DNA of 64,000 nucleotides. Source: Fibrobacteria bacterium. GTDB taxonomy: Bacteria > Fibrobacterota > Fibrobacteria > UBA11236. The stretch covers positions 241 through 64,240 of the forward strand of contig DATENA010000247.1 in the NCBI GenBank assembly GCA_035275285.1. The letters are read 5' to 3'. The position numbers were made by a program, and so were the translations under genes. The notes under the pieces were generated by a model. The model searched no databases. It was not told the origin of the DNA and was given only the letters and a program-made list of their open reading frames with translations. Positions 6,953-39,455 of this stretch are shown here, piece after piece (position 1 is the first letter of the stretch; each line of letters starts with the position of its first letter).

Positions 6953-6987
6953 GGGCAAGCATCCCGTGGATAGGAAGGATCGGCAAC

Positions 6988-7233
6988 ATGGCCAATGAGG
7001 TCAAGGAACGCGTCAGGAAAATAGTCTCCCGGAGCATCGGCGGGGAATACAAGGACAAGCCGATCCCGGACGGCATGAAGCTCATCGGCAACCTGCTCGA
7101 TTCGATGGCGGTGAACAGCCTGATCGTGGCCCTGGAAGAGGATTTCGGCTTCGCGTTCGACGACGAGGATCTCTCGGCCGAAGCCTTCGACACCGTGGAA
7201 TCGCTTTCCGAGCTAGTGCAACGGAAGCTCTAG
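6988..7233 (+). CDS. acyl carrier protein (phosphopantetheine-binding)
   Basis: 81 aa from the ATG at 6988, with an AGGAAGGA RBS. The 4'-PP attachment motif LLDSMAVNSLIVALEEDFG is present. The whole protein is acidic. Confidence 0.85.
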   Translation: MANEVKERVRKIVSRSIGGEYKDKPIPDGMKLIGNLLDSMAVNSLIVALEEDFGFAFDDEDLSAEAFDTVESLSELVQRKL

Positions 7234-7259
7234 ACCGGATGGCCTCGAGACGGGAGGAG

Positions 7260-8066: not shown

Positions 8067-8074
8067 AGGCGCGC

Positions 8075-8950
8075 ATGGAAGAAGCGGTTCGGTTCGAGGT
8101 CTCCGGAACGGCCCATTTCGGCATCCTCCATCTGCCTTCCGGGCGGGCGGAGTACGCCGATTTCCTGATCATGGTGGTCGGAGGCCCGCAGAACCGGACG
8201 GGAAGCCATCGATCCTTTACCCAAGTGGCCCGCGACCTGGCGGCCCGGAACATCCCCGTCTTCCGGTTCGATTATGCCGGCCTGGGGGACAGCGAGGGCG
8301 ATTGGCGGGGATTCGCCCACGCCGGCCCGTCCATCAAGGGCGCGATAGACTTCCTCCACGCGACCTTCCCCTCCCTCGAGCGGGTATCTTTATGGTCGCT
8401 TTGCGACGGTTCCGCCGCATGCGCCCTCTATGCGTCCGGGGACCGGCGCGTCTCGGGCATGATCCTGGCCAACCCATACGTCCATTCGGCGGAAGGGCAG
8501 GCCAAGGCCTTCCTCAAGCAGTATTACCTGCGCCGGCTCCTGGACAAGGCGTTCTGGAAAAAGGTATTCTCATTCCGGTTCAATCCGTTCGGTTCCCTCT
8601 CGTCGATGCGGTCCGTTGCGATCGCGGCATCCGGGGGAACGGTGGCTGCGCCCATCGCGGGCATGACCGTGGGCCCGGGGGAGGATCCTCCCCGGCTTCC
8701 GGAAAAGGTGATGGAAGGGCTGGAGGCTTACCGCGGCCGCTTGCGCCTGATCCTGAGCACCGCCGATCTCACGGCGCGCGAGTTCGAGGATCTGTTCCGG
8801 AGCCGGGCGGGCAAGGGTTCCCGCGGGGCGGAAGAGCTGCGTTACGTGGAAGGCGCGGATCATACCTTTACCGGCGGGGAAGCGAAGCGCCGGGTCTGCG
8901 AATTGAGCGCGGAGGCATGGGGAGCCATCCGGGCGGGAAGGGAGGCGTAA
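8075..8950 (+). CDS. alpha/beta-fold hydrolase (exosortase A system-associated hydrolase family, member 1)
   Basis: 291 aa. It has the GLGDSEG motif, and the nucleophile position shows SLCDGSA, so the nucleophile may be Cys. The stop overlaps the start of the next gene (TAATG). Confidence 0.7.
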   Translation: MEEAVRFEVSGTAHFGILHLPSGRAEYADFLIMVVGGPQNRTGSHRSFTQVARDLAARNIPVFRFDYAGLGDSEGDWRGFAHAGPSIKGAIDFLHATFPSLERVSLWSLCDGSAACALYASGDRRVSGMILANPYVHSAEGQAKAFLKQYYLRRLLDKAFWKKVFSFRFNPFGSLSSMRSVAIAASGGTVAAPIAGMTVGPGEDPPRLPEKVMEGLEAYRGRLRLILSTADLTAREFEDLFRSRAGKGSRGAEELRYVEGADHTFTGGEAKRRVCELSAEAWGAIRAGREA

Positions 8951-10551
8951 TGGCGAGAGTACTGCATGACATCCTGCTCGAGGCGGCCGAAGCCCGGCCG
9001 GACAAGGCGGCGGTCCTGATCCGGGACGCGTCCATGACTTACGCCGAGGTCCTGGGGGAAGCGCGCCGTCTCGCGGAAGTGCTGATGGCCTCCGGCGTCA
9101 AGCGCGTCGATCGCGTCGGTTGTTTCCTGGAGAAGCGTTTCGAAAAGGTCACTTCCATCTTCGGGATATCCATGGCCGGCGGCGTATTCGTTCCCATCCG
9201 GCGCTTGTCCACCTCGGCGCAGGCCGCCCATATCGTCCAGGACAGCGGTTCCCAGGTGGTCATCACCACCTATTCCCGCCTGCCCGTGCTCGCGGAATCG
9301 CTCGAGGACATGCCCTGCCTCCGCCTGGTCCTGGCCATCGGGTCCGCGGAGGAAGGGAAGGGCGCGCAGCTTCCCGGCGTGGAGGTCAGGGACTGGAGCG
9401 CCTCGCTGGCCGGCGCTTCCGGCCGCCCGGAGGTTCCGCGCGTGGTCGAGCCCGACCTGGCCGCCATCATGTACACCTCCGGGTCCACCGGCAGCCCCAA
9501 GGGCGTGGTGTTCAGCCACCTCAACGTGGTGGCGGGCGCCTGCACGGTTTCCGAATACCTCAAGATCACGGAGCATGACCGCCTGCTCAGCATCCTGACC
9601 TTCGGCTTCGACTATGGGCTCAACCAGCTGACCACGTGCTTCCTCAAGCAGGCCTCCCTCGTGCTCCTGGACTACCTGTTCCCCAAGGACATCACCGCCG
9701 CGGTGAACAAGTACGGCGTGACCGGGCTGGCAGCGGTGGCCGCGACCTGGATCCAATTGGTGCCGATCGAGGATTTCCAGGAGGCGCGCATGCCCACCTT
9801 GAGGTACGTCACCAATTCCGGCGGCGCCGTTCCCGAGGAGTTCGTGCGCGCCATCCGCCGGAAGCTGCCCAAGGTCTCCGTCTACCTGATGTACGGGCTC
9901 ACGGAGGCGTTCCGGTCCACCTTCCTCGATCCGGAGCTGGTGGATCTGTACCCCACTTCCATGGGGAAGGCCATACCGGGCGAGGAGATCATGATCCTCG
10001 ATCCCCAGGGCCGGCCGGTGAAACCCGGGGAAGTCGGTGAGCTGGTGCACCGCGGCGTGCTGGTGGCCCAAGGCTATTGGAACGCCCCCGAGCTCACCGC
10101 CAAGCGCTACAAGCGCAATCCCATGCAGCCCGCCGAAGTGCCCATCCCGGAAATGGCGGTATTCTCGGGCGACAAGGTGCGCATCGACGAAAAGGGTTTC
10201 CTCTACTTCGTGGGCCGGGACGACGAGATGATAAAGACCGCCGGCAACCGCGTCAGCCCCACGGAGATCGAGGACTTGCTGTACAAGTCGGGCTTCATCC
10301 GGGCGGCCATGGCCTTGGGCGTCCCGCACGGGAAATACGGGCAATCCGTGTACGCGGTCGTGGTCCTCGGGGAGGGGCGCGTTCCGGACGCCAAGGAGAT
10401 CCTGGCCCATTGCAAAAAGGTCATGCCCGCCTACATGGTGCCCGCGCAGATCGAATTGCGCGAGTCCTTGCCGCGCAACGCCAACGGCAAGCTCGACCGC
10501 GCGCTCATCAGGAAACAGGTATATGAAAAGTTAGGATTGGCCCCGAAATGA
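8950..10551 (+). CDS. acyl-CoA ligase (AMP-forming), exosortase A system-associated
   Basis: The AMP-binding signature IMYTSGSTGSPKGVVFSH is present. 533 aa. The TAATG overlap with the upstream hydrolase and the ATGA-type overlap downstream indicate an operon. Confidence 0.9.
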   Translation: MARVLHDILLEAAEARPDKAAVLIRDASMTYAEVLGEARRLAEVLMASGVKRVDRVGCFLEKRFEKVTSIFGISMAGGVFVPIRRLSTSAQAAHIVQDSGSQVVITTYSRLPVLAESLEDMPCLRLVLAIGSAEEGKGAQLPGVEVRDWSASLAGASGRPEVPRVVEPDLAAIMYTSGSTGSPKGVVFSHLNVVAGACTVSEYLKITEHDRLLSILTFGFDYGLNQLTTCFLKQASLVLLDYLFPKDITAAVNKYGVTGLAAVAATWIQLVPIEDFQEARMPTLRYVTNSGGAVPEEFVRAIRRKLPKVSVYLMYGLTEAFRSTFLDPELVDLYPTSMGKAIPGEEIMILDPQGRPVKPGEVGELVHRGVLVAQGYWNAPELTAKRYKRNPMQPAEVPIPEMAVFSGDKVRIDEKGFLYFVGRDDEMIKTAGNRVSPTEIEDLLYKSGFIRAAMALGVPHGKYGQSVYAVVVLGEGRVPDAKEILAHCKKVMPAYMVPAQIELRESLPRNANGKLDRALIRKQVYEKLGLAPK

Positions 10552-11798
10552 ACGCTTCCTCCCAGTCCGTCCCGGGCAGGTTCCCGTCCCGCGGCGGCGA
10601 GCTGATCGTCGGGGGCCGGCCGATCTCGGACATCGCCCGCGAGCATGGATCCCCGCTGTACGTCTACGACCTGGCCGTGCTGCGCGCCCGCCGGGCCGAG
10701 CTCCGCGCGGCCCTGCCCGGCAACCTCCTCATCACTTACGCGGTCAAGGCCAACCCGGAGCCCGGCATCGTCCGCGCCCTGGGGGCCCTGTACGACGGGG
10801 TGGACATCGCCTCGGGCGGGGAGATGCGCGTCGCGCTCGCCGCGGGCGTCCCCGCCGCCAAGATGAGCTTCGCCGGACCGGGCAAATCGCGGGAGGAGAT
10901 CCGCTTCGCGGTGGAGCGGGACATCGGCACCCTGAGCCTGGAAAGCGAGCGCGAACTCGATCACATCGAGGAGGCCTGCGCCTCCCTGGGGCGCGCGGCC
11001 GGAGTGATGGTGCGCGTCAATCCCGATTTCGAATTCACCCGCTCCGGGCTCAAGATGGGCGGCGGCTCCAAGCAGTTCGGGATCGACAGCGAACGGGTCC
11101 CGGCGCTGATCCAGAGGCTTTCCGCCTCCCGCCACGCGCGCTTCCAGGGCATCCATATCTTCTCCGGCACCCAGAACCTCAACGCGGACTCCGTCGTGGA
11201 CGCGTTCCGCAAGATCGCGGAATACACCGTCGGGCTCCGCGCCGCGACGGGCGCCGAAGTGCGCACCCTGAACCTGGGCGGAGGCTTCGGCATCCCCTAT
11301 TTCAAAGGCGATCAACCCTTGGACCTCGCCAGGACCGGGGAGGGCATCGGCGCCTTGTTGGCGGAGTTCGCGCCGCGGCTTCCCGGAACGGCCTTCAAGG
11401 TGGAGCTGGGGCGCTACCTGGTGGGCGAATGCGGCGTCTACCTGGCCCGGGTGCGCTACCGGAAGGAGTCGCGCGGCCAGGCCTTCCTGATCCTGGACGG
11501 GGGCATGCACCATCACCTCGCGGCTTCGGGGAACATCAGCCAGAGCCCCATCCGCCGCCAGATGCGATTGCTCGCCGCCAACCGCCTGGACGCGCCGGTG
11601 GAAAAGGTCAACGTGGTCGGGCCGTTGTGCACGCCCCTGGACACCTTCGGGCTGGGGGTGGAACTGCCCCGCCTGGAAGAGGGCGATTTCGTCGCCATCC
11701 CCAATTCCGGCGCCTATGGCATCTCCATGAGCCCGGCATCGTTCCTCGGGCATCCGCATCCCAAGGAAGTGCTCGTGGACGGGGAGGCGGCCGGATGA
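10548..11798 (+). CDS. PLP-dependent decarboxylase, Orn/DAP/Arg decarboxylase fold type III (diaminopimelate decarboxylase-like)
   Basis: The YAVKANPE motif carries the PLP lysine. 416 aa. The coding region overlaps both flanking genes by 4 nt. Confidence 0.85.
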   Translation: MNASSQSVPGRFPSRGGELIVGGRPISDIAREHGSPLYVYDLAVLRARRAELRAALPGNLLITYAVKANPEPGIVRALGALYDGVDIASGGEMRVALAAGVPAAKMSFAGPGKSREEIRFAVERDIGTLSLESERELDHIEEACASLGRAAGVMVRVNPDFEFTRSGLKMGGGSKQFGIDSERVPALIQRLSASRHARFQGIHIFSGTQNLNADSVVDAFRKIAEYTVGLRAATGAEVRTLNLGGGFGIPYFKGDQPLDLARTGEGIGALLAEFAPRLPGTAFKVELGRYLVGECGVYLARVRYRKESRGQAFLILDGGMHHHLAASGNISQSPIRRQMRLLAANRLDAPVEKVNVVGPLCTPLDTFGLGVELPRLEEGDFVAIPNSGAYGISMSPASFLGHPHPKEVLVDGEAAG

Positions 11799-13228
11799 TC
11801 ACGGTGCGCGAAACGGCCGAACCCGCGGCGGCGGAAGCGCGGCTCGCGGAGGCGGACGCCCTGGGGAAGCGCGCAGGTTACCCCATGCCCTATCACGATC
11901 CGCGCCTGGCCCTGGCCTGGTGGCGGCATTTCCACGGTCTCGACGGGGCCGATTTCGGCCCCAAGCGCGGCAAGAACTTCTACGGGGTGCGCAGCCGCGT
12001 CACGGCCCTCCGCATCCTGTGGGCCGAGGAAGACGGGAAACTGCTGGGGGTGCTCCCGCTCGCGCTGCAGGACGTGAAGACGGCCGGCGAGACCGGCGAC
12101 GTGCGCATGCTCTGCTTCTGCGGGGATTCCGTCATGTTCGCGTACCATGACATCGCGGCCGACGAGGCCCGGCGCGCGGAGGTGCTGGAGGCCTTTTTCG
12201 CGCATCTGGAGCCCGGCCTGGACCGGGATTACGACATCCTGTTCCTGGGCTACATGCCGCAACGCTCCGCCAACCTTCCCTGGCTGCGCGCGCGCGCGGA
12301 GGCCTGGAAGCGGGCGGGCCGCATCGCGAGCCTGGGCCCCAACCGCCGGCGCGGCGGGGTCTATCCGTGGACCCTGTATCCGCTGCAGAACCTGGCCAGG
12401 AAGATCGCGGAGAAGCTGCCGGGGCTGGATCCGGAAAAGGCGTCGCGCCTGGCCGATCTCGCCGCGGGCCTGGCCAAGGCCACCCCCGGCGCCCTCTTTT
12501 TCCCGGCCACCCGTTCCTCCCTGGAGCGGAAGGCCAGGGCCGTGCTGGAGGATCTTGCGGGCGAGGCGGCCGTGGAGGAGGAGCGCCGCGCCGCGGCGGA
12601 CCTGCTGGCGCCCATGCCCATCCCTTACCCGCACCTCGACCTGCCCAACACCGCGGAAGGCTTCCTGGAGCGCCTGAGCAAGGACACCCGCAGGTATTTC
12701 ACCCGCTACAAGCGCCGTTTCCTGGAAGCGGGCGGGAGCTTCGAAAAGGTGGAGGCCGGCAAGATCACGGCCGCCGACGTGGAAGAGTACCTCGAGCTGC
12801 ACCGCATGCGCTGGGGGGAGGATTCCGCCTCCCTGAACTCCTCGGAGGCCTGGAACTTCCACCGGGCGCTCAGCCTGGACGCCGCCAAGGCCGGGCGCTT
12901 CACGCTGTTCTTCGCCCGCTTCGAGGGCAAACGCATCGCCTCGCATTCCTGCCTGGATTTCCACCCGCGCCGGGAAGGCTATTACAACGGGCGGGATCCG
13001 GCGCAGGAGGAGTTGCGCGCCGGCCGCCTGCTCTACATGGAGACCATCAACGACGCCATGGAGAACGGGTTCACCGAGTACAACATGGGCTACGGCGGTC
13101 ACGATTACAAATCCAGTTTCGCGGCCCTGGAGGAGCATACCTTCAACCTGCTGCTCCATTCCGGCAAACGCGCGATCGATTTCGCGCGGGTGTTTTCCGG
13201 CTATGAGTCCATCGTTCCGGAAGCCTGA
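11795..13228 (+). CDS. FemAB/GNAT-like N-acyltransferase family protein, PEP-CTERM/exosortase A-associated
   Basis: ATGA overlap with the decarboxylase stop. 477 aa. Its position and size match the FemAB-like member of the known exosortase A cassette. I assigned it from context plus recollection of the family, not from a defined motif. Confidence 0.55.
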   Translation: MITVRETAEPAAAEARLAEADALGKRAGYPMPYHDPRLALAWWRHFHGLDGADFGPKRGKNFYGVRSRVTALRILWAEEDGKLLGVLPLALQDVKTAGETGDVRMLCFCGDSVMFAYHDIAADEARRAEVLEAFFAHLEPGLDRDYDILFLGYMPQRSANLPWLRARAEAWKRAGRIASLGPNRRRGGVYPWTLYPLQNLARKIAEKLPGLDPEKASRLADLAAGLAKATPGALFFPATRSSLERKARAVLEDLAGEAAVEEERRAAADLLAPMPIPYPHLDLPNTAEGFLERLSKDTRRYFTRYKRRFLEAGGSFEKVEAGKITAADVEEYLELHRMRWGEDSASLNSSEAWNFHRALSLDAAKAGRFTLFFARFEGKRIASHSCLDFHPRREGYYNGRDPAQEELRAGRLLYMETINDAMENGFTEYNMGYGGHDYKSSFAALEEHTFNLLLHSGKRAIDFARVFSGYESIVPEA

Positions 13229-13243
13229 AGGAAGGGGCGAGGC

Positions 13244-14431
13244 GTGTCCCCCGGGCTGACCAAGGTCCCCCTTCCGGGCCTGCGCGATCTCCTGGCGCCG
13301 CCCGCGCCGATCCGCACGCCGTTCCGCCCCGGTTACCGCACCGCTTATACCATGAACGGGCGCAATGCCATCCACTTGGGGCTTTCCGCCCTGGGGATAA
13401 GGCCGGGCGCGGTGGTGCTCCTGCCTGCCTTCCATTGCACCGCCCTGGTCGATCCGGTGATGGCCTACGGCGCCCGGCCCGCCTATTACCCGGTGCGCCG
13501 GGACCTGACCCTGGACCTGGCGTCGATCGAAGCCGCCCTGGTCCGGACCGGCGCTTCCGCGCTGCTGTGCGTGCATTTCTTCGGCTGGCCGGCGCCGGTG
13601 CGGGAGCTCCGGGCCTTGTGCGATCGCCATGGCGCGTCCCTCATCGAGGACGCCACCCACGGGCTTTTCGGGGAGGTGGAGGGGCGGCCCTACGGATGCT
13701 TCGGCGACGTGGCGGTGTTCAGCTTCCGGAAAACCCTGCCCGTCCAGGATGGGGGCGCCCTGGTGGTCCGCGCCGCCCGGGCCGCGTTTCCCCGGCCGCG
13801 CCGTTTTTTCCCCGCGCCTTACCAATTGCGCATGTTGAAGTGGACCTTGGACGCTTCCCGCGCGGGACCCTTCCGGCCCCAACCCGTTTCCCCGGCCGCG
13901 CGGGCTTCGGAGCCTCCGCCTCCCGGCGCCGATCGCGCCCGGACCCGCGGTTCGGGAGCCCGTTCCCCGGCCGGTATCCGGGGCCCGGATTCCCAGGAGG
14001 ATCCCGCCTTCGTCCCCGAATGCTTGTTGTTCCCGATGTCGCTGGCCTCGCGCCTGATCCTGGGCTCCGCGTCCGCCGGGGCCGTGGTGGCGGCGCGCAG
14101 GCGCAATTACGCGTTCCTGTCCCGGCGCCTGGCCGGCGTCGCCGGGCTGGAACCCTGCTTCCGGGACCTCCCGGAGGGCGTTTGCCCCATGGGATTTCCC
14201 TGCCTGGCGGGGGACGGCGGCCCGCGCTGGGACTACCGCTTGCGCGGCCACGGCGTGCCCGCGTTTTCCTTCGGCGAGGAGCTCCACGCCACCCTGGACC
14301 TCTCCGGCTTTCCGGACGCCCGCGAATTGTCCGAGCGCCTGGTGATCCTTCCCGTGCACCAGGGGCTTTCCGAAGCGGACCTGGAACGCATGGCGGCCCT
14401 GGTCATCGGGGCGTTCGGGGCGGCGGGGTAG
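13244..14431 (+). CDS. DegT/DnrJ/EryC1/StrS-like PLP-dependent aminotransferase-fold protein
   Basis: NGRNAIHLGLSALGI ... AVFSFRKTLPVQDGGAL is the K-containing segment typical of the family. It has an unusual Pro/Ala/Arg-rich low-complexity insertion near residues 205-250. Confidence 0.5.
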   Translation: MSPGLTKVPLPGLRDLLAPPAPIRTPFRPGYRTAYTMNGRNAIHLGLSALGIRPGAVVLLPAFHCTALVDPVMAYGARPAYYPVRRDLTLDLASIEAALVRTGASALLCVHFFGWPAPVRELRALCDRHGASLIEDATHGLFGEVEGRPYGCFGDVAVFSFRKTLPVQDGGALVVRAARAAFPRPRRFFPAPYQLRMLKWTLDASRAGPFRPQPVSPAARASEPPPPGADRARTRGSGARSPAGIRGPDSQEDPAFVPECLLFPMSLASRLILGSASAGAVVAARRRNYAFLSRRLAGVAGLEPCFRDLPEGVCPMGFPCLAGDGGPRWDYRLRGHGVPAFSFGEELHATLDLSGFPDARELSERLVILPVHQGLSEADLERMAALVIGAFGAAG

Positions 14432-14456
14432 CGGCTTTGCTACATTTGGCGCACCG

Positions 14457-15686
14457 ATGAAAAGGATCCTGCTGGTCGCCTTCCATTTTCCGCCCATCCA
14501 GGGCAGCAGCGGTTACCTGCGCACGCTCAAGTTCACCCGCTACCTGCCGGAGTTCGGGTGCGAGCCCATCGTATTGACGGTGAGGCCGGGCGCTTACGGC
14601 GCGGTGAATCCCCGCGGCCTGGAGCAGATCCCCGCGGGCCTGGAGGTCCACCGCAGCTTCGCGTTCGATCTGCCCAAACTGCTTTCCATCCGGGGGCGCC
14701 ACTTCTCGTGGATGAGCATCCCGGACCGCTATTCCCCTTGGATTCCCTTCGCGGTGATGGACGGGCTCCGCCTCATCCGCAAGCGCGGCATCGACGCGAT
14801 CTTCTCGACCTACCCCATCCCGGGCGCGCACGTCATCGGGGGGATGCTGCACCGCCTTTCCGGCAAGCCGTGGGTGGCGGATTTCCGCGATCCCATGTGG
14901 GACGATTATTCCCGACAGGCGTCCCTCTCCCTGAGCGTGCGCAAGGCCGTGGAGCGGCGCGCCATCGAGCGGGCGACCGCCGTGGTGGTGGCCACCCGGG
15001 GCATGAAGTCCATGTATGCCGCACGTTACCCCGGCATGCCCGCCGGCAAGACCACCGTGATCCTGAACGGTTTCGACGAGGAGGACTTCGCGGGGATGGA
15101 GACGCCTCCGCGCCGCAACGGCGGGCCCGCGGTCCTGATCCACGCGGGTCTCCTCGAGCGGATCGATCGCAACCCCGAAGCCTTCTTCCTGGCCGTCAAA
15201 TCCCTCCGCGACAGCGGCAAGGCGGGACCGGAGCGGCTGCGCGTCAGGCTCATCGCCACCGGCCAGGACGGCGAGTACCGGAAGAACCTGGAAGCGCTGG
15301 GCATCGCCGACATGGTCCGGCTGGAGCCGGCGATACCCTACGGCGAGGCCCTCTCGGCCATGGCCGCCTCGGACGTGTTGCTGCTGTTCCAGGGCCCTAC
15401 CTGCGACGCGCAGATCCCGGCCAAGCTGTACGAGTACATGCGCGTCGGCAAACCCATCCTGGCGCTGGCCACGGAGTCCGGCGAGACCGGCCGCCTGGTG
15501 ATCGCGTCCGGAGGCGGCAAGGTGGTCCCCATCGGGGACGCGGCCGCCATCGCCGCGTGCCTGGAAGAGTGGCTGGAATCGATCGAAGCGGGGCGCCCCT
15601 TGCCCGCCACCACCGCGGAAACGGCCTCGGCCTATGCGCGCCGGAACCAGGCCGGGCAATTGGCGGACATTTTCCGGGGCTTGTGA
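14457..15686 (+). CDS. glycosyltransferase family 4 (GT-B), PEP-CTERM/EpsH1 system-associated type
   Basis: 409 aa. The N-terminus MKRILLVAFHFPPIQGSSGY and the C-terminal EYMRVGKPIL region are typical of GT4. Confidence 0.8.
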   Translation: MKRILLVAFHFPPIQGSSGYLRTLKFTRYLPEFGCEPIVLTVRPGAYGAVNPRGLEQIPAGLEVHRSFAFDLPKLLSIRGRHFSWMSIPDRYSPWIPFAVMDGLRLIRKRGIDAIFSTYPIPGAHVIGGMLHRLSGKPWVADFRDPMWDDYSRQASLSLSVRKAVERRAIERATAVVVATRGMKSMYAARYPGMPAGKTTVILNGFDEEDFAGMETPPRRNGGPAVLIHAGLLERIDRNPEAFFLAVKSLRDSGKAGPERLRVRLIATGQDGEYRKNLEALGIADMVRLEPAIPYGEALSAMAASDVLLLFQGPTCDAQIPAKLYEYMRVGKPILALATESGETGRLVIASGGGKVVPIGDAAAIAACLEEWLESIEAGRPLPATTAETASAYARRNQAGQLADIFRGL

Positions 15687-15694
15687 AGGACGGG

Positions 15695-15767
15695 AGCCGC
15701 CTCCCGGACTCGAACGCGGGATCCGCTCATTGCGAATGAGCCGCTCTGCCGGTTGAGCTAAAGCGGC
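15695..15767 (-). tRNA. tRNA-like sequence (anticodon CGC, nominally Ala), probably degenerate or pseudo-tRNA
   Basis: The minus strand folds as a cloverleaf: acceptor GCCGCTT/AGGCGGC, a perfect D-arm GCTC-AACCGGCA-GAGC, and a perfect anticodon arm GCTCA-TTCGCAA-TGAGC with U33, anticodon CGC and A37. The T-loop is TTCGAGT, but the T-stem CCGCG/CCGGG has two central mismatches. The 3-70 pair is C:G, not the G3:U70 alanine identity element. No CCA is encoded. Coordinates are +/-1. Confidence 0.45.
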
Positions 15768-15818
15768 GGGGTAGAAGCGCAAATGCATAAAAACCCGCCT
15801 TTCCACGCGCACACCGCC

Positions 15819-15862
15819 CGGCCGCCGCAGGCGCGTCGGCCGGCCGCCGCAGGCGCGCCGTC
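15819..15862. repeat. tandem duplication of a ~22-bp GC-rich unit (cggccgccgcaggcgcg...)
   Basis: Two adjacent near-identical copies sit immediately next to the tRNA-like sequence and upstream of the secreted-protein genes. Confidence 0.5.
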
Positions 15863-15923
15863 TTGCTGATTTCCGGCCGCGAATCTATTTTCTGATGCCA
15901 TTCCATCTCCGCGGAGGCTCGAC

Positions 15924-17222
15924 GTGAAAGGATTCCTCAATCCACTGGCATTGGTTCTCTGCGCGGGGCTGGCGGCGGGGTCCGCCGAGGACCTCAAACT
16001 GTATTGGTATTTCAGCACCATCGACACCAATGCGGCCATCTGGGGGTCTTCCCGGGTGGAGTTCGACAAACGCGACAGCATCAAGGTGGCCTACCGCGGA
16101 TACGAGCATGACATCCGGTTCGCGGAGTTCACGCCCTGGCGGTGGCGGTCGGTGCAGGCGGACACCAATTACACGGGCGGGCCGGCCCAGATGAACGCCA
16201 CGCTGGCTTCCAACGGGCAACCGCACATCATCTACCAGAGCGCGGACTACCAGAGGGCCTACCATGCCACCTTCTCCGGCGGCAAATGGCAGCACAGGCT
16301 GCTGGGCAACATCGGCATCGAGAACCTGGACTGGTACCAGATGGCCATCGCTCCCGATTCCAAAGGCGGGGTGCACATGGTCTACGGGAAGGACGCCGGC
16401 GGCGATGCGACGGTGATGTACCACGCCTACATCGATTCCGCGGGAACGCTCAGCGATACGGGTTTCGCCAGCAAGGAACGATCGGGCAAATGGTGCTCCA
16501 TCACCGTGGATTCCAAGGACAGCCCCGTGATCGCGCATTTGCGGATCACGGAGGAGCGGCTCGCCGTGGCCTATATCGACAGCGGGGCCTGGAAAACCCA
16601 AACGATCGGCGAGGACCTGCCCCAGATCCCCATGGGCTTCCATGCCTCCATCCTGAGGGAATCGGACACCCTCTACCGGATCCTCTACCAGGACAGGAGC
16701 AGGAAAGAGCTTTGGATGGCCAGCGGAAAGCCCGGCGGAACCTGGACCACCGAGAAGATCGACAACCTGGACGGCTACACCAACTTCACCGCCCTGAACG
16801 ATATCGGCATGGGCAAGGACGGTACCCTGTTCGTAGCCTATACGAACATCACGTCTCCGGACGGGGAGACGGTGGACAAATGCAAGCTGATGTTCGCGTA
16901 CCGCAGGGACGGGGCATGGCAAAAGCAGGTGGTTGATTCGAGCGGCAAGGCCGGGGAGTTCGTCTCCATGGCGATCGATTCGAAAGGGCAGCCCGCCATC
17001 ACGTATTACGATCGCGGCACCCACCATCTGAAGCTGGCCCTCGGCAGCTTCACGGAGCTCACGGGCATCAAGCCGGCCGGAAAATCCCTGTCCCGTAGCG
17101 TCCTTCATTCCGGCGCGCCGTCCTTCGATGCGACCGGGAGATTGCGTTCCACCGTGACGGACGGGAACAATCCCAAATCGCGGAAAGCGAAGGGAAGGAC
17201 GATCCTGTTCACCGCGCCCTGA
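15924..17222 (+). CDS. secreted repeat protein, predicted beta-propeller (hypothetical)
   Basis: GTG start with a GGAGG RBS. Signal peptide MKGFLNPLALVLCAGLAAGSA. About seven repeats of a ~45-aa unit ending in VAY/IAY/ITYYD. GC is lower than the surroundings. Confidence 0.5.
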   Translation: MKGFLNPLALVLCAGLAAGSAEDLKLYWYFSTIDTNAAIWGSSRVEFDKRDSIKVAYRGYEHDIRFAEFTPWRWRSVQADTNYTGGPAQMNATLASNGQPHIIYQSADYQRAYHATFSGGKWQHRLLGNIGIENLDWYQMAIAPDSKGGVHMVYGKDAGGDATVMYHAYIDSAGTLSDTGFASKERSGKWCSITVDSKDSPVIAHLRITEERLAVAYIDSGAWKTQTIGEDLPQIPMGFHASILRESDTLYRILYQDRSRKELWMASGKPGGTWTTEKIDNLDGYTNFTALNDIGMGKDGTLFVAYTNITSPDGETVDKCKLMFAYRRDGAWQKQVVDSSGKAGEFVSMAIDSKGQPAITYYDRGTHHLKLALGSFTELTGIKPAGKSLSRSVLHSGAPSFDATGRLRSTVTDGNNPKSRKAKGRTILFTAP

Positions 17223-17230
17223 GGCAAATC

Positions 17231-17258
17231 CTCCCATTTGTCAAACATTTGACAAATG
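17231..17258. promoter_or_regulatory. perfect 13-bp inverted repeat with 2-nt spacer (cccatttgtcaaa ca tttgacaaatggg); candidate terminator hairpin or operator
   Basis: It starts 9 nt after the stop of the 15924..17222 gene and contains TGTCAAA/TTTGACA half-sites. A T-run follows about 15 nt downstream. Confidence 0.4.
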
Positions 17259-17366
17259 GGGGAATCCTCAAGTTTTTGGACCCGCGTCGTTGAAAAAGCG
17301 TTTTTAAAGGACAGGTCTGAAATGTCTCAAGCCTTGCAGCCCCCGTTATTCGCCCCCGTCCGCCGG

Positions 17367-17395
17367 TTGCATTCACGGGGGTTGCCTGCTATGAT
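17367..17395 (+). promoter_or_regulatory. sigma70-like promoter candidate (TTGCAT - 17 nt - TATGAT)
   Basis: -35 TTGCAT and -10 TATGAT with a 17-nt spacer. It lies about 28 nt upstream of the ATG at 17423. Confidence 0.4.
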
Positions 17396-17422
17396 AATGG
17401 GGTGTTGAAAGGTCGGGTAACC

Positions 17423-18613
17423 ATGCGTATCATCACCCTCGCTATTCTTTGCGCTCTCGCGGTACTGCCGGCGCGCGCTACCGTTCTCGGCGATGCCGCC
17501 GCGAACCTGAAGCCCGGGGAATGGGTTTCGTTCTCCGCCAAGGGCTGGAGCAGCGCCCTCATCACCACGGGCGTCGACAACATCCTCAACTATTCGAACT
17601 CCGGCGTCTGGGATCCCATCAAGAAGGAAATCCGGTTCGTGGGGCAGGGCCATTACGAAGCCGAGAAGATGATCATCTATGATGACGCCACGAACACCTG
17701 GCGGAACGCCTCCCCTCCGGTGGGGAGCGGGATCGGCCATGGCTATGATCACAACACCATCAACACCGTGACCGGCATCTCCTATTACCGCAAGTATTAC
17801 TCCACCGGCATCTACGCGTTCCAGAACAACGCGTGGAGCAAGCTGACCAACATGCCGGGAACCGAAGACGATTATTCCTGCTGCGGCGCCCTGGTCTACT
17901 TCAACGACTACAACGGGCTCACCTTCTGGGGCGGCGGCAAGCTGTACGGATTCCGCGACAACAAGTGGACCACGCTCAAGACCGGCTTGGCCATGGGCGA
18001 TTACCATAACGTGGCCGAATACAGCAGGCAATACGGGCTGGTTTTCGGCGGCGGCGGCAACGGCAGCAAGAGCCTTTTCGCGATGGACGGCAAGGGAAAC
18101 GTCACCGCCGTACCCGCCGCGCCCACGGGCCTGGGCGTGAACACCGGGCTCATGAGCGTGGATCCCGCCACCGGCGAACTGCTGGTCATCGGCGGCAGCG
18201 GCACGTTCCACGCATATTATCCCGCCGCCAAGACCTGGAAGAACCTTCCCAATCCGCCCACGAAGTTCCTGGAATTGGAGGGCCTGGCGACCAAGATGAC
18301 CGTGGCCATACCCATCGATACGTACGGAATCACCATGTTCCTCCACCGGGACGGCGTCGATCTGTACAAGCATATCCCCTCGGGACCCGTGGTCGTGGGA
18401 CTGGGCCGGAGCGGGGCCGCCCCCCGGATCCGCACCGGCGGCGGCATGGTCGCCTTCGGGTCCGATTGGAGCGCGAATCCCGCGTACCAGGGTTTGCAGG
18501 CGGTAACCTTGATGGGACGCAACCTGCCTGCGCTTACCCAGGGCGGGGACGCCGGGTCCATCCGGATGCGGCCTTCGGCGGGCGTCTATATGATGCTTCC
18601 CGAGCGGCGCTGA
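17423..18613 (+). CDS. secreted Kelch-like repeat (beta-propeller) protein, hypothetical
   Basis: Signal peptide MRIITLAILCALAVLPARA. Repeated units with conserved W (IYDDATNTW, AFQNNAWSKL, GFRDNKWTTL, YYPAAKTWKNL) and GG pairs, as in Kelch/galactose-oxidase propellers. Confidence 0.5.
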   Translation: MRIITLAILCALAVLPARATVLGDAAANLKPGEWVSFSAKGWSSALITTGVDNILNYSNSGVWDPIKKEIRFVGQGHYEAEKMIIYDDATNTWRNASPPVGSGIGHGYDHNTINTVTGISYYRKYYSTGIYAFQNNAWSKLTNMPGTEDDYSCCGALVYFNDYNGLTFWGGGKLYGFRDNKWTTLKTGLAMGDYHNVAEYSRQYGLVFGGGGNGSKSLFAMDGKGNVTAVPAAPTGLGVNTGLMSVDPATGELLVIGGSGTFHAYYPAAKTWKNLPNPPTKFLELEGLATKMTVAIPIDTYGITMFLHRDGVDLYKHIPSGPVVVGLGRSGAAPRIRTGGGMVAFGSDWSANPAYQGLQAVTLMGRNLPALTQGGDAGSIRMRPSAGVYMMLPERR

Positions 18614-18777
18614 AGTCCCCCCGGGCCCGCTTCCGGAGGCGCGCTCCCGGTCCCGCGGGGCTCACTTGTTTCCGATCCCGCCAATTCTTACCTTTCCGGC
18701 TCCTGACGCGGACGTTCCGTCATCACCCTTCGAGGCCGCCGTCCGGACGCCTGGCCGCGGAAAGGAGCCTGTACAGC

Positions 18778-19833
18778 ATGTCTTTGACCGGGGTCGTCAA
18801 GGAAGCGGGATTTCGCGCCCTGGGCAGCGTCCTGCAGGCCGGATCTTCCGGAAGGGGCCTTGTTTCCGGGCTGGACGCGATCGCCCTGCGCGGGCGTCCC
18901 ATTCCCCGCGTCACCCGCAATCGCATCCCCCGGTTCCAAATCCTCGTCTACCACCGGGTGCTTCCGGACAACGATCCCTTCGCCATGTCCCCGGTCAGCG
19001 TGTCCGCCTTCGATCGGCAGATGGCGTTATTGGGTTCCCGTTTCCGGGTGGTCTCCCTGGATCAGTTGACGGACGAGCTGGATGCGGAAAGCCTGAAGCC
19101 GGGAACCGTATGCGTGACGTTCGACGATGGGTACCGCGACAATCATGACCATGCCATGCCGGTCCTTTTGAAGTACGGGATTCCCGCCACCATCTTCCTG
19201 GCCACGGGATTGATCGGCACGGGGGAATCCTCCTGGTACGACAAGGTGCTGGCCATCCTGCGGGAAACGCGCGCGGGCTCCCTGGATTTCGCCCCGGCCG
19301 GGCTGCGCAGCGCGGACCTGGCGCGGCCGGAAACGCGGAGCGCCTTGGCCCACCGTCTCCTGGAATGGCTCAAGGGTTTCGCGCCCGCGGAGAGGGACGA
19401 CCATATCCGGGATCTGGGCAAGTCGCTGGGCTGCGGGCCGGAGGCGGCCTCCAAGGCCATGCTCGATTGGGACCTGGTCCGCGCCATGCACGCGAAGGGG
19501 ATCGCGTTCGGCGCGCATACGGTGAACCATCCGATCCTTGCGAAAGTGGGGGAAGCGGAAATGGACGCGGAGATCGGGGCCTCCAAGGCGGCCATCGAAA
19601 AGGAACTGCAACGGGAAACCCGCCATTTCGCCTATCCCAACGGCCGGCGCGGGGATTACAACGCCGACACCATCCGATTGCTGAAAAAGCACCGCTTCTC
19701 CCTGGCGTTGACCACCAACCCCGGCGTCAACGGTCCGGAGCAGGATCGCTTCCAGTTGCTCCGCCGCCAGCCCTGGGAGGACAGCGTGGACAGCCTGTTT
19801 TCCCGCATGCTCATGGAGAGGCTGACGACTTAG
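18778..19833 (+). CDS. polysaccharide deacetylase (NodB homology domain), PEP-CTERM locus subfamily
   Basis: ATG at 18778 after an AAAGGAG RBS. NodB motifs VCVTFDDGYRDNHDHAMPVL and GAHTVNHP are present. 351 aa. Confidence 0.8.
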   Translation: MSLTGVVKEAGFRALGSVLQAGSSGRGLVSGLDAIALRGRPIPRVTRNRIPRFQILVYHRVLPDNDPFAMSPVSVSAFDRQMALLGSRFRVVSLDQLTDELDAESLKPGTVCVTFDDGYRDNHDHAMPVLLKYGIPATIFLATGLIGTGESSWYDKVLAILRETRAGSLDFAPAGLRSADLARPETRSALAHRLLEWLKGFAPAERDDHIRDLGKSLGCGPEAASKAMLDWDLVRAMHAKGIAFGAHTVNHPILAKVGEAEMDAEIGASKAAIEKELQRETRHFAYPNGRRGDYNADTIRLLKKHRFSLALTTNPGVNGPEQDRFQLLRRQPWEDSVDSLFSRMLMERLTT

Positions 19834-19900
19834 AACCTTGGATCGCGCCGAATAGTTAGCTTTACTCCCCTAACCTATGTCGATCAGCGTGCAAGGAAAA

Positions 19901-21370
19901 ATGGCCCGGGGGGCCGTATGGATGATCCTGTTCAAGTGGGTCGAACGCGGTCTCGGCCTCGTGAGCACCTTGATCCTGGTCCGCTTGCTTTCCCCGGCGG
20001 ACTTCGGGATGGTCTCCATGGCCCTTTCGTTCATCTTCATGGCCGAACTGCTCTCGGCCTTCAGCTTCGACATCGCGCTCATCCAGAACCAGGCCGTCAC
20101 GGACGAGCATTACCATTCGGCATGGACCGCGAACATCATGCTGGGCGGCTTCATCTCCGTCCTGATGCTGGGCCTGGCCCTGCCCATTTCCCATTTCTAC
20201 AAACAGCCGGCGGTCTTCCCGGTCATCTGCGCCCTGTCCCTGGGCCCTCTCCTGGGGTCGCTCGAGAACATAGGCATCGTGGCGTTCCGCCGGAATCTTG
20301 ATTTCCGCCGCGAGTTCATCTTCCAGGTCAGCCGCAAGATCATCGCCACCTCCGTCACCATCCCCCTGGCCCTGGCCTTGCATTCGTATTGGGCGCTGGT
20401 GGCCGGCATCCTGGCCTCCAAGGCGGGCGGAACCGCGATGAGCTATTGGGTGCAAGCCTTCCGCCCGCGCCTTTCCTTCAAGGAAGTGGGATCCCTCATG
20501 AGTTTCTCGCGCTGGCTGCTGCTCAACAACTTCGTCAACTTCCTCAAGGAAAGGTCCACCGACTTCGTGATCGGCCGCTTCTTCGGCCCCGGGCCGCTGG
20601 GCATGTACAACGTGAACAACGAGTTCGCCAGCATGGCGAGCAACGAGATGGGCCAGCCCATCAACCGCGCCCTGCTTCCCGGGTTCGCCAAGCTGGCGGG
20701 GGATGAAAAGGCGATTTCCCGGACCTTCGCGAACGCGGCGGGAATGGTGGCCGTGCTGGCCGTGCCCGCCGCGGCCGGCATCTTTGCCGTCGCTCCCTAC
20801 CTGGTCCCCGTGGTGCTGGGCGCCAAATGGCTGCCCGGCGTGCCGGTCATGGAAGTGCTCAGCCTGAACAGCGCCCTGGTGGTATTCCAAGGCACCATCG
20901 TGACCGCCCTGGTGGCCACGGGCAATCCGTTCGCCGCCACCAGCACCAACGTCTTGTTCGTGGCCCTGCTCCTGGCGGGAATGTTCCTGCTGACCGGGAG
21001 GTTCGGGCCCTTGGGCGCCGCTTTCGCCGTCTTCGCCGCCTGCGCGGCGACGACGCCGGTCTTCCTGTGGCAACTGAAGCGGCATGCCCGCGTGCCCGTT
21101 TCCAACTTCTTCCGCGTCACGGTGAGGCCCGCGCTCGCCTCCGCCGCGATGATCGCGGCCGTGCGATGGGCCCTTCCCGCCTACGTGCCGGGGATGGGAA
21201 GCGCCAGGGCGGGCCTGCTGCTTGCATGCGGCGTGGGCATGGGCGTATTGGTGTACGCCTGCGCCATGCTGGCGTTGTGGACCTCCATGGGACGGCCGGA
21301 CGGCGCCGAGAAGCAGGTGTTTTCCCGCCTCAAATCGCGCGTTCCCGCCTGGATGCCCATTCCGGGTTGA
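19901..21370 (+). CDS. polysaccharide biosynthesis protein / Wzx-like flippase (MOP superfamily)
   Basis: About 12-14 TM helices. The N-terminus is the Polysacc_synt type (ILFKWVERGLGLVSTLILVRLLSPADFG). ATG at 19901 with an AAGGA RBS. Confidence 0.75.
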   Translation: MARGAVWMILFKWVERGLGLVSTLILVRLLSPADFGMVSMALSFIFMAELLSAFSFDIALIQNQAVTDEHYHSAWTANIMLGGFISVLMLGLALPISHFYKQPAVFPVICALSLGPLLGSLENIGIVAFRRNLDFRREFIFQVSRKIIATSVTIPLALALHSYWALVAGILASKAGGTAMSYWVQAFRPRLSFKEVGSLMSFSRWLLLNNFVNFLKERSTDFVIGRFFGPGPLGMYNVNNEFASMASNEMGQPINRALLPGFAKLAGDEKAISRTFANAAGMVAVLAVPAAAGIFAVAPYLVPVVLGAKWLPGVPVMEVLSLNSALVVFQGTIVTALVATGNPFAATSTNVLFVALLLAGMFLLTGRFGPLGAAFAVFAACAATTPVFLWQLKRHARVPVSNFFRVTVRPALASAAMIAAVRWALPAYVPGMGSARAGLLLACGVGMGVLVYACAMLALWTSMGRPDGAEKQVFSRLKSRVPAWMPIPG

Positions 21371-22512
21371 TGGCGATGCCGCGCATCCGCATCCTGCACA
21401 TCGTCCATTCGCTCGGTTACGGGGGAATGGAAAGCCGCATCGCCCGCCTGGCGCGCGGCCTTCCGCGCGAAACCCATGAAGTGGAAGTGCTGAGCTTCAA
21501 GGCCGCCTCCACGGGGAAACTGGAATTGGCGGCGGGCGTTCCGCACCGTCTTTTCCCCATCCCTTCCGGTTTGCATCCCTTGCTGCTGCTGCGCCTGGCC
21601 CTGGCCGTCCGCCGGGGCGGATACGACATCGTGCATACCCACAACTGGTCCAGCATGTTCTACGGCGTGGCCGCCGCCGCGCTGGCCCGCGGGCCGGTGG
21701 TGGTGCACGGGGAACACGGGCTGAACCGGTCCGATCTGTCCGGGATCCCCTGGAAGCGCCTGGCCGCGCAGCGGGTGCTGGCCCGCATCGCCGACTGGAT
21801 CGTTCCCGTGAACGGGGTCATCGCCGCCCACGTGCGCAAGGCATGGCGCCTGGACGATTCCAGGATGACCGTGATCCCCAACGGCGTGGACCTGGAGCGC
21901 TTCGCGCCCGCGCCGCCGGGTCCCGCTCCGGAAGGATTCGCGCTGGGGATGGTGGGCCGCCTGGACGACGTGAAGGACATCGGCTGCGCGTTGCGCGCCG
22001 TGCGCCTTTTGATCGATCAAGGCAAGGGCGAAGGCCTCCGCCTGATCCTGGTCGGCGAGGGGCCGATGCGGGAACGGCTCGGAGCCTTGGCCGCGGAGAC
22101 GGGCGTCGCGGATCGGGTCGAGTTCGCCGGCGCCAGGAGCGACGTCGAAGCCTGGTACCCGCGCTTCCACCTCTACCTGAACACCTCCGTCTACGAGGGC
22201 ATGTGCAATACGCTCCTGGAAGCCATGGCTTGCGGCCTTCCGCTCGTGGCGTCCCGGGTGCCGGGAAACGCGGCCTGGCTCAAGGAAACGGAAAACGGCC
22301 TTTTCTTCGAGGCCGGGGATGCGCGGGGATTGGCGGGATGCATCGAGGCGTTGCGCGCCGATCCGCATGCGCGCGGCGCCATGGGCCGGCGCAACCGCCT
22401 GCGGGCGGAAACGGAGTTCGACAACCGGCGCTTCATCGAAGCCTATGCGGGCCTGTACGCGCGCCTGCTCGCGAACCGCGATCGCGCGCGCGGCGGCGGC
22501 AAGCCCGGTTAG
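21370..22512 (+). CDS. glycosyltransferase family 4
   Basis: TGATG overlap with the upstream stop. MAMPRIRILHIVHSLGYGGME... and the C-terminal EGMCNTLLEAMACGLPLVASRV (E-x7-E region). Confidence 0.8.
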   Translation: MAMPRIRILHIVHSLGYGGMESRIARLARGLPRETHEVEVLSFKAASTGKLELAAGVPHRLFPIPSGLHPLLLLRLALAVRRGGYDIVHTHNWSSMFYGVAAAALARGPVVVHGEHGLNRSDLSGIPWKRLAAQRVLARIADWIVPVNGVIAAHVRKAWRLDDSRMTVIPNGVDLERFAPAPPGPAPEGFALGMVGRLDDVKDIGCALRAVRLLIDQGKGEGLRLILVGEGPMRERLGALAAETGVADRVEFAGARSDVEAWYPRFHLYLNTSVYEGMCNTLLEAMACGLPLVASRVPGNAAWLKETENGLFFEAGDARGLAGCIEALRADPHARGAMGRRNRLRAETEFDNRRFIEAYAGLYARLLANRDRARGGGKPG

Positions 22513-22554
22513 GGCGCGGATTCGCCCGTCCGCCCCGGAAACGACCGGCGGCCT

Positions 22555-23751
22555 TCAACGGCCCGCGGCGCGGGCCGCCAGCGAATCGAAAATGGGCCGC
22601 AACTGGTCGGAGACCTGGCTCCAGGTGCGCGCGCCCCCGCTGCGGGCGATGGCCTCCCGATCCCAGGAGGCGGCGAGCGCTTTTTCCAAGGCCTTGGACA
22701 GGGCTTCCGGCGTCCGCTCCGGTATCAGCATGCCCAGTTCCGGACCGGTGACGATTTCGGGCATGCCCCATACCCGCGTGCCCACCACCGGCAGTCCGCA
22801 GGCCAGGGCTTCGCATACGGCGTTAGGCCAGCCTTCGCGGGAGCTGGCCATGACGAACACGTCGCTGGCGGCGTACCATTCCGGCAGGGCGTCGTTGCCC
22901 ACGGCGCCGGGAAAGATCACCCGGTCCGCGATGCCCAGCTCGGAGGCCAGGCGGTGCAGGGCGTTCCGCATTTCGCCGTCCCCGGCCACCGCTACGCGCA
23001 GGTCTCCACGCTCGCGCAGCATGGAGAACGCGCGCAGCAGGATGTGGAAGCCTTTCCTTTCGGTCAGGTGGCCCACCGAAAGGATGATGCGCCCTTCCGC
23101 GGGCAACTTTAGATTGCGCCGGGAAACGTCCTTGGGCAATGGCCGGAACCTGGCGGTGTCCACGCCGTTGCCGATCACGGAGATGCGGGCCGGGTCCATG
23201 CCCAACTCCAGGGCGACGGTCTGGAGATCGGAGCATACGCAAATCAGGTGGCCGCAGGTCCCCAGATTTTCCCTGATCCGGCGGCGGATGGCCGGAAAAC
23301 GGGGAAACAGGTTCAGATCCGTGCCGCGCGCGGACAGGAGCACGGGCGCGCCCGCGAGGCGCCCCGCTTCCAAGGCGGCGGTGGCGTCCGGATAGATGTA
23401 ATGCCCGTCGACGAGATCCACCGGCCGGCGGGAGTGGATTTCCCGGACCAGGCGGCGGATGCCCATGGCCATGGAGCGTCCCTGGAACCGCATTCCGATA
23501 TTGGGCGCCACCAGGTACCGCGGATGATGGACCGGGTAGCCGCGATCCTGCTCCAGCTTCGGGACGCGGGCGAACCTGTCGTAGACCTCCGAGGTGGGGA
23601 AGGGCAGCCGGGGATACCATGGGACCGGGGCGATGACCGTCCACGCATGGCCGTAGCGCTTGGTGAAATCCTCCATGCGCGCCCGGATGAAAAGCCCGTG
23701 CACGGGCTGGACCGAGTTGGGAAACAGGGAGGTGATGGTCAGGATATGCAT
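22555..23751 (-). CDS. glycosyltransferase family 4
   Basis: Start MHILTITSLFP with a GAGGAG RBS. C-terminal ...EGWPNAVCEALACGLPVVGTRV. Confidence 0.8.
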   Translation of the reverse strand: MHILTITSLFPNSVQPVHGLFIRARMEDFTKRYGHAWTVIAPVPWYPRLPFPTSEVYDRFARVPKLEQDRGYPVHHPRYLVAPNIGMRFQGRSMAMGIRRLVREIHSRRPVDLVDGHYIYPDATAALEAGRLAGAPVLLSARGTDLNLFPRFPAIRRRIRENLGTCGHLICVCSDLQTVALELGMDPARISVIGNGVDTARFRPLPKDVSRRNLKLPAEGRIILSVGHLTERKGFHILLRAFSMLRERGDLRVAVAGDGEMRNALHRLASELGIADRVIFPGAVGNDALPEWYAASDVFVMASSREGWPNAVCEALACGLPVVGTRVWGMPEIVTGPELGMLIPERTPEALSKALEKALAASWDREAIARSGGARTWSQVSDQLRPIFDSLAARAAGR

Positions 23752-23800
23752 GGCGCATGCTCCTCGCGGGTCCTTCCGGAGCGCAGCCCGGGCGAAAGCT

Positions 23801-33182: not shown

Positions 33183-33221
33183 TCATTAACCTTTCGAAAT
33201 GTTCGGATACACCCTTAAATA

Positions 33222-34931: not shown

Positions 34932-34947
34932 CAGGCCCGCATCTCCT

Positions 34948-39449: not shown

Positions 39450-39455
39450 CCCGCG

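Follow-up and report, generated by a model that had tools for sequence, protein, structure and literature searches.

A tRNA gene with a CGC anticodon on a tRNA-Thr(CGU)-type body in an exosortase-A exopolysaccharide locus of a Fibrobacteria bacterium

The stretch of DNA analyzed here, in the following referred to as the window, comprises 64,000 nucleotides of contig DATENA010000247.1 (positions 241 to 64,240, forward strand) of a Fibrobacteria bacterium (GCA_035275285.1) and harbors one tRNA gene of 73 nt on the minus strand (15695..15767), which combines a tRNA-Thr(CGU)-type body with the anticodon CGC. By descent this gene is very likely an orthologue of the clade-specific tRNA-Thr(CGU) genes found at the same position in the two nearest related species, members of a small group of Fibrobacterota-like bacteria. 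Comparison with these genes shows that a single transition from U36 to C turned the anticodon CGU, which reads the Thr codon ACG, into CGC, which reads the Ala codon GCG. We assume, with a probability of roughly 0.55 for the mechanism as a whole, that the gene is a recent null or weak allele of tRNA-Thr(CGU). It lies antisense between two plus-strand genes of an exosortase-A/PEP-CTERM exopolysaccharide (EPS) locus, and the annotation of the surrounding genes bears out the location inside an EPS locus that the original prediction, a reading of the bare sequence, had given.

The existence of a complete tRNA gene is well supported. ARAGORN reports only one tRNA in the window, at 15693-15767 on the minus strand, which it labels as tRNA-Ala(cgc); the call as a tRNA stands, whereas the label does not hold. 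A local Rfam scan of 400 nt matched RF00005 (tRNA) at 15695-15767 on the minus strand with 49.3 bits (gathering score 29, E = 1e-9), and the alignment is full length, covering model positions 1-71. A gathering-threshold Rfam scan of the whole window (1-64000) reported zero families, the tRNA included. Since the local scan scores 49.3 bits and is thus 20 bits over the threshold, this miss is a filter artefact, and we rejected it as evidence against the tRNA. The minus-strand RNA reads GCCGCUU-UA-GCUC-AACCGGCA-GAGC-G-GCUCA-UUCGCAA-UGAGC in its first half and GGAUC-CCGCG-UUCGAGU-CCGGG-AGGCGGC-U in its second half, followed by CCC. The original prediction of a 73-nt tRNA-like element with anticodon CGC at this place is therefore real, and its description of intact acceptor, D and anticodon arms with U33, CGC and A37 agrees with our own reading: the acceptor stem has seven pairs with U6.G67 as the single wobble, the D and anticodon stems are fully paired, and the anticodon C34 G35 C36 occupies 15732..15734 on the minus strand, with C36 at window position 15732, a G on the plus strand. 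The pair C3:G70 had also been read correctly (C3 at 15765, minus strand, G70 at 15698). The discriminator is U73 (15695), and CCA is not encoded, as 15693-15694 read CC and the next base is C. All core bases, namely U8, A14, G18 G19, A21, U33, U54 U55 C56 and A58, are present as encoded. A15 (15753, minus strand) differs from the G15 of the canonical tRNA-Thr genes in the alignment. The same sequence together with its flanks is found in an ENA assembly (L001) and in a Logan assembly (L002), with 100% identity over 301 nt. The minimum-free-energy fold of the single sequence is not the cloverleaf (z = -1.6), which is uninformative, as usual for tRNAs.

The evidence for descent comes mainly from synteny, for which we compared contigs encoding homologues of the GT4 glycosyltransferase of the window (14457..15686, plus strand; Pfam and NCBIfam). 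The glycosyltransferase gene, which is the anchor for synteny, converges with the tRNA gene and ends with a stop codon 8 nt away from the discriminator base at 15695. Fibrobacterota-like metagenome contigs represent the two nearest species, L003/L004 the first and L005 the second, whose glycosyltransferases are 65% and 64% identical to that of the window, respectively, with a range of 64-66% over these contigs. In L003, L004, and L005 a 75-nt minus-strand tRNA is located 6 nt past the glycosyltransferase stop codon, and all of them are called tRNA-Thr(cgt) by ARAGORN. Thus, the alignment with related genomes that had been put forward as a check places a tRNA-Thr(CGU) at the same position. Compared with these orthologues, the window tRNA reaches 88% and 85% identity, whereas the spacer beside it is only 48% identical; at the four-fold synonymous sites of the glycosyltransferase the identity is 51-54%, a value near saturation, for which composition alone predicts ~41%. 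The corrected synonymous distance between the window and L003 is ~0.9 substitutions per site. This contrast with the spacer and the synonymous sites shows that the tRNA has been under purifying selection. The window tRNA differs from both orthologues at six positions only, among them two compensatory changes, A4-U69 in the orthologues to G4-C69 in the window and C29-G41 in the orthologues to U29-A41 in the window; the remaining two differences are nt 17 of the D-loop and the anticodon change U36 to C.

Database matches lead to the same assignment. Full-length E. coli matches to the window tRNA are annotated tRNA-Thr only, ARAGORN assigns every one of the best matches from the plasmid and chromid collection (S. 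meliloti, Sphingomonas, Mycolicibacterium) to tRNA-Thr(cgt), and the annotated full-length phage matches are tRNA-Thr as well. Because both the syntenic orthologues and the nearest database tRNAs are tRNA-Thr, the body is of the Thr type and the CGC anticodon a one-base derivative. With bacterial tRNA-Thr(CGU) of the E. coli thrW type and of S. meliloti, the window tRNA shares the 5' end and D arm (GCCGCUUUAGCUCA...AGAGC), G1-C72, C2-G71, G35, A37 A38, the T loop UUCGAGU and the overall length. It differs from them in having C36 instead of U36 and A15 instead of G15, in a T stem that pairs only in a slipped register with a bulge, and in the lack of an encoded CCA.

This T stem had been taken as a sign of decay, since CCGCG faces CCGGG. 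The bases were re-read and are correct, and in the standard register G51.G63 and C52.C62 are indeed unpaired. However, positions 51:63 and 52:62 are unpaired in three of three species in this register, in which 90.5% of the pair cells are paired. When the T arm (15703..15720, minus strand) is read in a slipped register, with the pairs C48-G65, C49-G64, C50-G63, G51-C62, and G53-C61, a bulged C52 (window 15716) and the loop UUCGAGU, all 63 pair cells are paired, with 21 pairs intact in each of the three species. The slipped cloverleaf of the window tRNA has an energy of -27.5 kcal/mol compared to -22.4 kcal/mol in the standard register and is thus ~5 kcal/mol more stable; a canonical S. meliloti tRNA reaches -25.1 kcal/mol. 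The Rfam model alignment independently adopts the slipped register. The T arm CCCG[C/U]G-UUCGARU-CCGGG is common to the window tRNA and both orthologues, and the sole base that varies in it across species is the bulged one, C or U. Since the Thr(CGU) orthologues have the same T arm, which pairs fully when slipped, the T stem is not a sign of decay; it is an old and conserved trait of the lineage. C48 is drawn into the stem, leaving a variable loop of 4 nt. Because the length of the gene equals that of a canonical tRNA-Thr, this is a re-registration and not an insertion. Canonical tRNA-Thr(CGU) pair G15 with C48 (alignment of S. meliloti, Sphingomonas, Mycolicibacterium, and the E. coli prophage), and we infer that in the present family, which has A15, U47 (window 15721) could stand in for position 48 as the partner of A15, which would back the slipped register. 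T arms of this type are rare. An exact pattern of D, anticodon and T arm gave no match in 185,579 GTDB representative genomes, and the same pattern gave none in the JGI metagenomes and none in IMG/VR. What had been described as a defective tRNA-Ala has largely turned out to be a tRNA for another amino acid with an alternative fold, as it is a tRNA-Thr by descent and body. An irregular T stem also occurs in the prophage-borne tRNA-Thr(UGU) of E. coli that was included in the comparison (L177, 301-376, within a tRNA cluster), which has its own A52.C62 mismatch (ACCAG/CCGGU) and suggests that tRNAs of mobile elements can tolerate T-stem irregularities.

Alanyl-tRNA synthetase (AlaRS) does not read the anticodon, so that an NGC anticodon alone confers no Ala identity. 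The bacterial Ala identity set consists of A73, G2-C71, G3.U70, G4-C69, and G20, and the bacterial Thr identity set of G1-C72, C2-G71, G4-C69, G5-C68, G34/G35, and U36 (PMC9976931 Table 1). In place of the Ala elements, the window tRNA has C3:G70, C2:G71, U73, and C20. It resembles tRNA-Ala(CGC) only in the anticodon CGC, A37, and G4-C69, lacks G3.U70, G2-C71, A73, and G20, and shows no sequence relatedness to it beyond what all tRNAs have in common. The claim that this is not a normal tRNA-Ala is thus confirmed, and from the published identity rules we infer that AlaRS cannot charge it. Among the Thr elements, G1-C72, C2-G71, G4-C69, and G35 are present, 5:68 is C-G, and the determinant U36 is missing, which both orthologues have. 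U36 matters for a second enzyme as well, as the formation of N6-threonylcarbamoyladenosine at position 37 (t6A37) strictly needs U36-A37-A38 (PMC13276492).

With the change U36C, threonyl-tRNA synthetase (ThrRS) would lose one identity base and would still find G1-C72, C2-G71, G4-C69, and G35, whereas the t6A37 enzyme would lose its required U36-A37-A38 context. The product would be a poorly charged and under-modified tRNA able to pair with GCG; poor charging and modification are to be expected because U36 is lost for both ThrRS and t6A37. The gene would then be a weak or null allele, of very recent origin, of a tRNA-Thr(CGU) that is dispensable. It would insert at most a little Thr at GCG codons, and the decoding of ACG would fall to another tRNA-Thr with its gene outside the window. 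In the genes of L001, which correspond to window positions 5003-24997, GCG accounts for 40% of the codons for Ala and for 5% of the total. At this frequency a CGC tRNA charged efficiently with Thr would be harmful, and a null or weak molecule therefore fits better than a working one. Codon use in these genes is extreme in general: among the Thr codons, ACC accounts for 62% and ACG for 36%, and ACA for 0 of 250; relatives with and without the tRNA have the same pattern of codon use. The tRNA appears to be dispensable in this clade. In L012, the closest relative of L005 with a glycosyltransferase 80% identical to that of the latter, the corresponding spacer of 240 bp (1006-1245) contains neither a tRNA nor a detectable remnant, so that the gene has been lost cleanly there, and in eight further related loci the glycosyltransferase is directly followed by the next gene, again with no tRNA. 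Where loci lack the tRNA, a profile search with nhmmer detected no remnant above noise.

Several observations weigh against a recent null or weak allele. Not a single stem pair is broken in the window tRNA despite the ~0.9 synonymous substitutions per site, a distance at which 73 nt of neutral sequence would no longer be recognizable, and in a simulation all 21 pairs survived three random substitutions with P = 0.20 and six with P = 0.05. Therefore, either U36C is very recent or the CGC gene is still under selection; if the change ended selection, it would have to fall within roughly the last tenth of the history of the lineage. Furthermore, the tRNA of L005 (3726-3800, minus strand) has C33 instead of the near-universal U33 (loop UCCGUAA); none of its stems is broken, and G27.U43 and U6-A67 are one-sided changes. 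L013, the glycosyltransferase of which is 58% identical, has an unrelated tRNA-Lys(CUU) at 1963-2035 (minus strand; 61 bits in Rfam) in the same slot and on the same strand, and in this tRNA position 37, almost always a purine, is U (loop CUCUUUA). Thus, three of the four species-level tRNAs of the slot combine intact stems with an anomaly in the anticodon loop. Three independent "recent" defects would be a coincidence, which a function other than decoding would explain better. Moreover, as ACG represents 36% of the Thr codons and ACA is not used, loss of an ACG reader may not be neutral.

The explanation that best survives beside a null or weak allele is that the tRNAs of this slot are kept for their body and not for their anticodon loop, either as aminoacyl donors for a FemAB-like GNAT acetyltransferase or for another non-ribosomal use. 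We regard this as rather unlikely, although several observations speak for it. The stems are conserved, with compensatory changes, between species whose synonymous sites are saturated. The anomalies, namely C36 (window), C33 (L005), and U37 (tRNA-Lys of L013), all affect the anticodon loop, and of these C33 and U37 should hurt decoding and not charging. Two unrelated tRNAs, Thr and Lys, occupy one slot, whereas in a distant control of 117 loci, which were anchored by glycosyltransferase alignments (at most 46% identical) and scanned for tRNAs, only two tRNAs were found and neither of them is adjacent to the glycosyltransferase. The absence of exact pattern matches to the T arm in GTDB representatives, JGI metagenomes, and IMG/VR would also fit. 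EF-Tu would bind such tRNAs less well because of the irregular T arm, by analogy to tRNA-Gly of Staphylococcus that is not used for protein synthesis. A candidate enzyme is encoded in the same cassette, two genes upstream: the GNAT of 477 aa (11795..13228, plus strand; Acetyltransf_6, PF13480, E = 2.9e-18) is part of an exosortase-A-associated cassette and has a weak match to FemAB_like (PF04339). There is also a precedent in idiosyncratic tRNAs that take part in Fem-type reactions (PMC2175331, PMC12256121). However, the FemAB_like match (E = 0.001, 18.7 bits) is below the Pfam cut-off of 27, and a dependence of the GNAT on tRNA is hypothetical; a sequence search of the PDB with the GNAT gave no relative. 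The GNAT is present in at least eight related loci that have no tRNA, and so does not depend on a local one. The amino acids carried by the Thr and Lys tRNAs would differ, and a donor tRNA would suffer from U36C as well, since a determinant for ThrRS is lost. The elbow is normal (G18 G19, T54 Psi55 C56). Only four species-level sequences are available, all of them metagenome assemblies. The window tRNA and the tRNAs of Fem transferases (tRNA-Gly of S. aureus, the FemX substrates of W. viridescens; PMC2175331, PMC12256121) have idiosyncratic T-arm features in common, and the window tRNA is also located near a GNAT resembling the Fem superfamily in a pathway for a cell-envelope polysaccharide. 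They differ in that the Fem-type tRNAs keep the anticodon that is correct for their synthetase and lose G18 G19, which the window tRNA keeps. Moreover, in contrast to the Fem transferases, the GNAT of the window is only a candidate user of aminoacyl-tRNA and mostly occurs without a tRNA in related loci. That the slot harbors a new class of locus-embedded tRNAs which serve the polysaccharide pathway off the ribosome, with a Thr type (slipped and bulged T arm), a Lys type in a neighboring lineage and drift of the anticodon loops (C36, C33, U37), is a speculative extension with a somewhat smaller chance still. If the loop anomalies of the three lineages stem from a function other than decoding, tRNAs would be linked to the uncharacterized exosortase-A accessory cassette.

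It is improbable that the gene encodes a deliberate mistranslator, a tRNA that ThrRS would charge with Thr in spite of C36 and that would, in certain conditions, place Thr where GCG calls for Ala, comparable to the tRNA-ProX family of Streptomyces. A structurally intact tRNA whose anticodon and body belong to different amino acids would be typical for such a molecule, the acceptor determinants G1-C72, C2-G71, and G4-C69 are kept, and at 4:69 the window even has the G4-C69 determinant of E. coli, where L003 and L005 have A4-U69. Such tRNAs are known in bacteria (PMC10404621), and tRNA-ProA, tRNA-ProN, and tRNA-ProT of Streptomyces and Kitasatospora likewise carry a foreign anticodon on an otherwise intact body (PMC10404621). 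However, the chimeric anticodon is present in one species only and both orthologues keep CGU, so that relatives do not share the shift, in contrast to tRNA-ProX. The lost U36 belongs to the listed determinants of ThrRS; in this respect ThrRS differs from AlaRS or SerRS, as it reads the mutated base. In addition, with GCG at 5% of all codons, the effect would be proteome-wide. ProRSx is encoded beside tRNA-ProX, whereas the genes called for 4457-25686 and 20 large open reading frames from elsewhere in the window yielded neither a synthetase gene nor a synthetase paralogue. Since neither a partner synthetase was found nor is the chimeric anticodon conserved, we rejected a dedicated mistranslator of the tRNA-ProX type.

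The original prediction had favored a decayed tRNA, such as the remnant of an integration target, or else a tRNA-like regulatory RNA. We consider a structurally decayed pseudogene, an integration-site remnant or a regulatory RNA highly improbable. Two T-stem mismatches appear if the arm is drawn in the standard register, the GC content drops just downstream, and the gene order beside the tRNA varies between species. However, the T arm is common to the Thr(CGU) orthologues and pairs fully when slipped, and compared to these orthologues the window tRNA shows no truncation, no broken stem and no loss of a core base; the sole change at a functional site is U36C. No second copy of the 5' or 3' part of the tRNA was detected in the 64 kb of the window with up to three mismatches, and no integrase was found in a scan of the called genes of 4457-25686 and of 20 large open reading frames in the rest of the window. 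There is also no island boundary at this place, because the gene past the tRNA is orthologous to the gene that follows the glycosyltransferase in loci lacking the tRNA. A regulatory RNA is likewise not supported; the tRNA gene is full length and scores 49.3 bits.

Slightly less probable again is that the organism really has CGU and that C36 reflects a minority variant or a mistake in sequencing or assembly. The difference is one of a single base, and the three assemblies that agree on it (the third-party metagenome-assembled genome, L001 from ENA and the Logan assembly L002 of SRR5195143) may come from the same or related reads. However, they were made by different pipelines, so that a slip of one pipeline does not account for it, and a consensus error at one particular functional base is unlikely. 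Charging by ArgRS or GlyRS was ruled out, since the anticodon bases are wrong for these enzymes. To our knowledge there is no bacterial precedent for C-to-U editing that could restore U36, and nothing supports it here.

If the gene is a recent null or weak tRNA-Thr(CGU) allele, it would represent an anticodon shift caught in the act on a body that is incompatible with the synthetase. The gene also brings to light a small lineage of tRNA-Thr in which the slipped T stem is conserved. Standard annotation tools would list it as tRNA-Ala(CGC) and leave the genome seemingly without a tRNA-Thr(CGU), both of which are wrong. Such a mislabel matters for inferences from the tRNA sets of metagenome-assembled genomes, namely on completeness, codon capacity, and genetic-code calls.

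The whole window represents one large exosortase-A/PEP-CTERM locus (8014-14431 and 32478-43121). Upstream of the tRNA the gene order is TIGR03098 acyl-CoA ligase, TIGR03099 pyridoxal phosphate-dependent decarboxylase, GNAT, DegT aminotransferase, and GT4 glycosyltransferase; the ligase, the decarboxylase, and the Acetyltransf_6 GNAT form an uncharacterized accessory cassette together with an acyl carrier protein and two hydrolases. Past the tRNA follow a 432-aa protein, a deacetylase, a flippase, and further glycosyltransferases. The 432-aa protein (15924..17222, plus strand) belongs to no Pfam or NCBIfam family. It is 44% identical (E = 8e-110) to the product of 13030-14310 in L003, which has a faint BNR_4 match, and its orthologues directly follow the glycosyltransferase in loci without the tRNA. 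The gene next to the tRNA slot is Kelch-like in L003, L005, and L012 and encodes a methyltransferase in L013. The gene at 17423-18613 encodes a protein of ~400 aa, also without a Pfam or NCBIfam family, for which no relative was detected in L003; this gene and that of the 432-aa protein are located in the stretch of lower GC content (0.60). Elsewhere, the window encodes a PEP-CTERM protein (32478-33182, minus strand), a histidine kinase (39456-41630), a sigma-54 response regulator (41751-43121), a TPR protein, and Wzy-type polymerases. The change in local GC content that had been noted at the tRNA is real, with 0.684 at 14-16 kb and 0.601 at 16-18 kb.

Around the tRNA no consensus of a sigma-70-type promoter or of a terminator was found. 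The only upstream stretch common to the window, L003, and L005 is a CATTTGCG block (15778..15785, minus strand), 11-18 nt upstream of the 5' end of the tRNA, which was identified by alignment with L003 and L005 and reads GTTTGTACATTTGCG in the latter two. It is a possible but unproven promoter element, and the block is not enriched in the window. The spacer between the 5' end of the tRNA and the next gene also contains two tandem GC-rich units of 22 nt (15815-15858), CGCCCGGCCGCCGCAGGCGCGT and CGGCCGGCCGCCGCAGGCGCGC, which are 91% identical, overlap a palindrome and are not alignable to the spacers of L003 and L005. The sequence TACATTTG occurs at 14441-14448, 9 nt before the start codon of the glycosyltransferase, and again at 5009-5016. 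Its octamer is the same as the GTTTGTACATTTGCG upstream of the tRNA in L003 and L005, where the window has TGCATTTGCG. The TACATTTG octamer resembles the -7 promoter box TAnnTTTG of Bacteroidetes, but this motif is not enriched in the window (4 found vs 5.4 expected).

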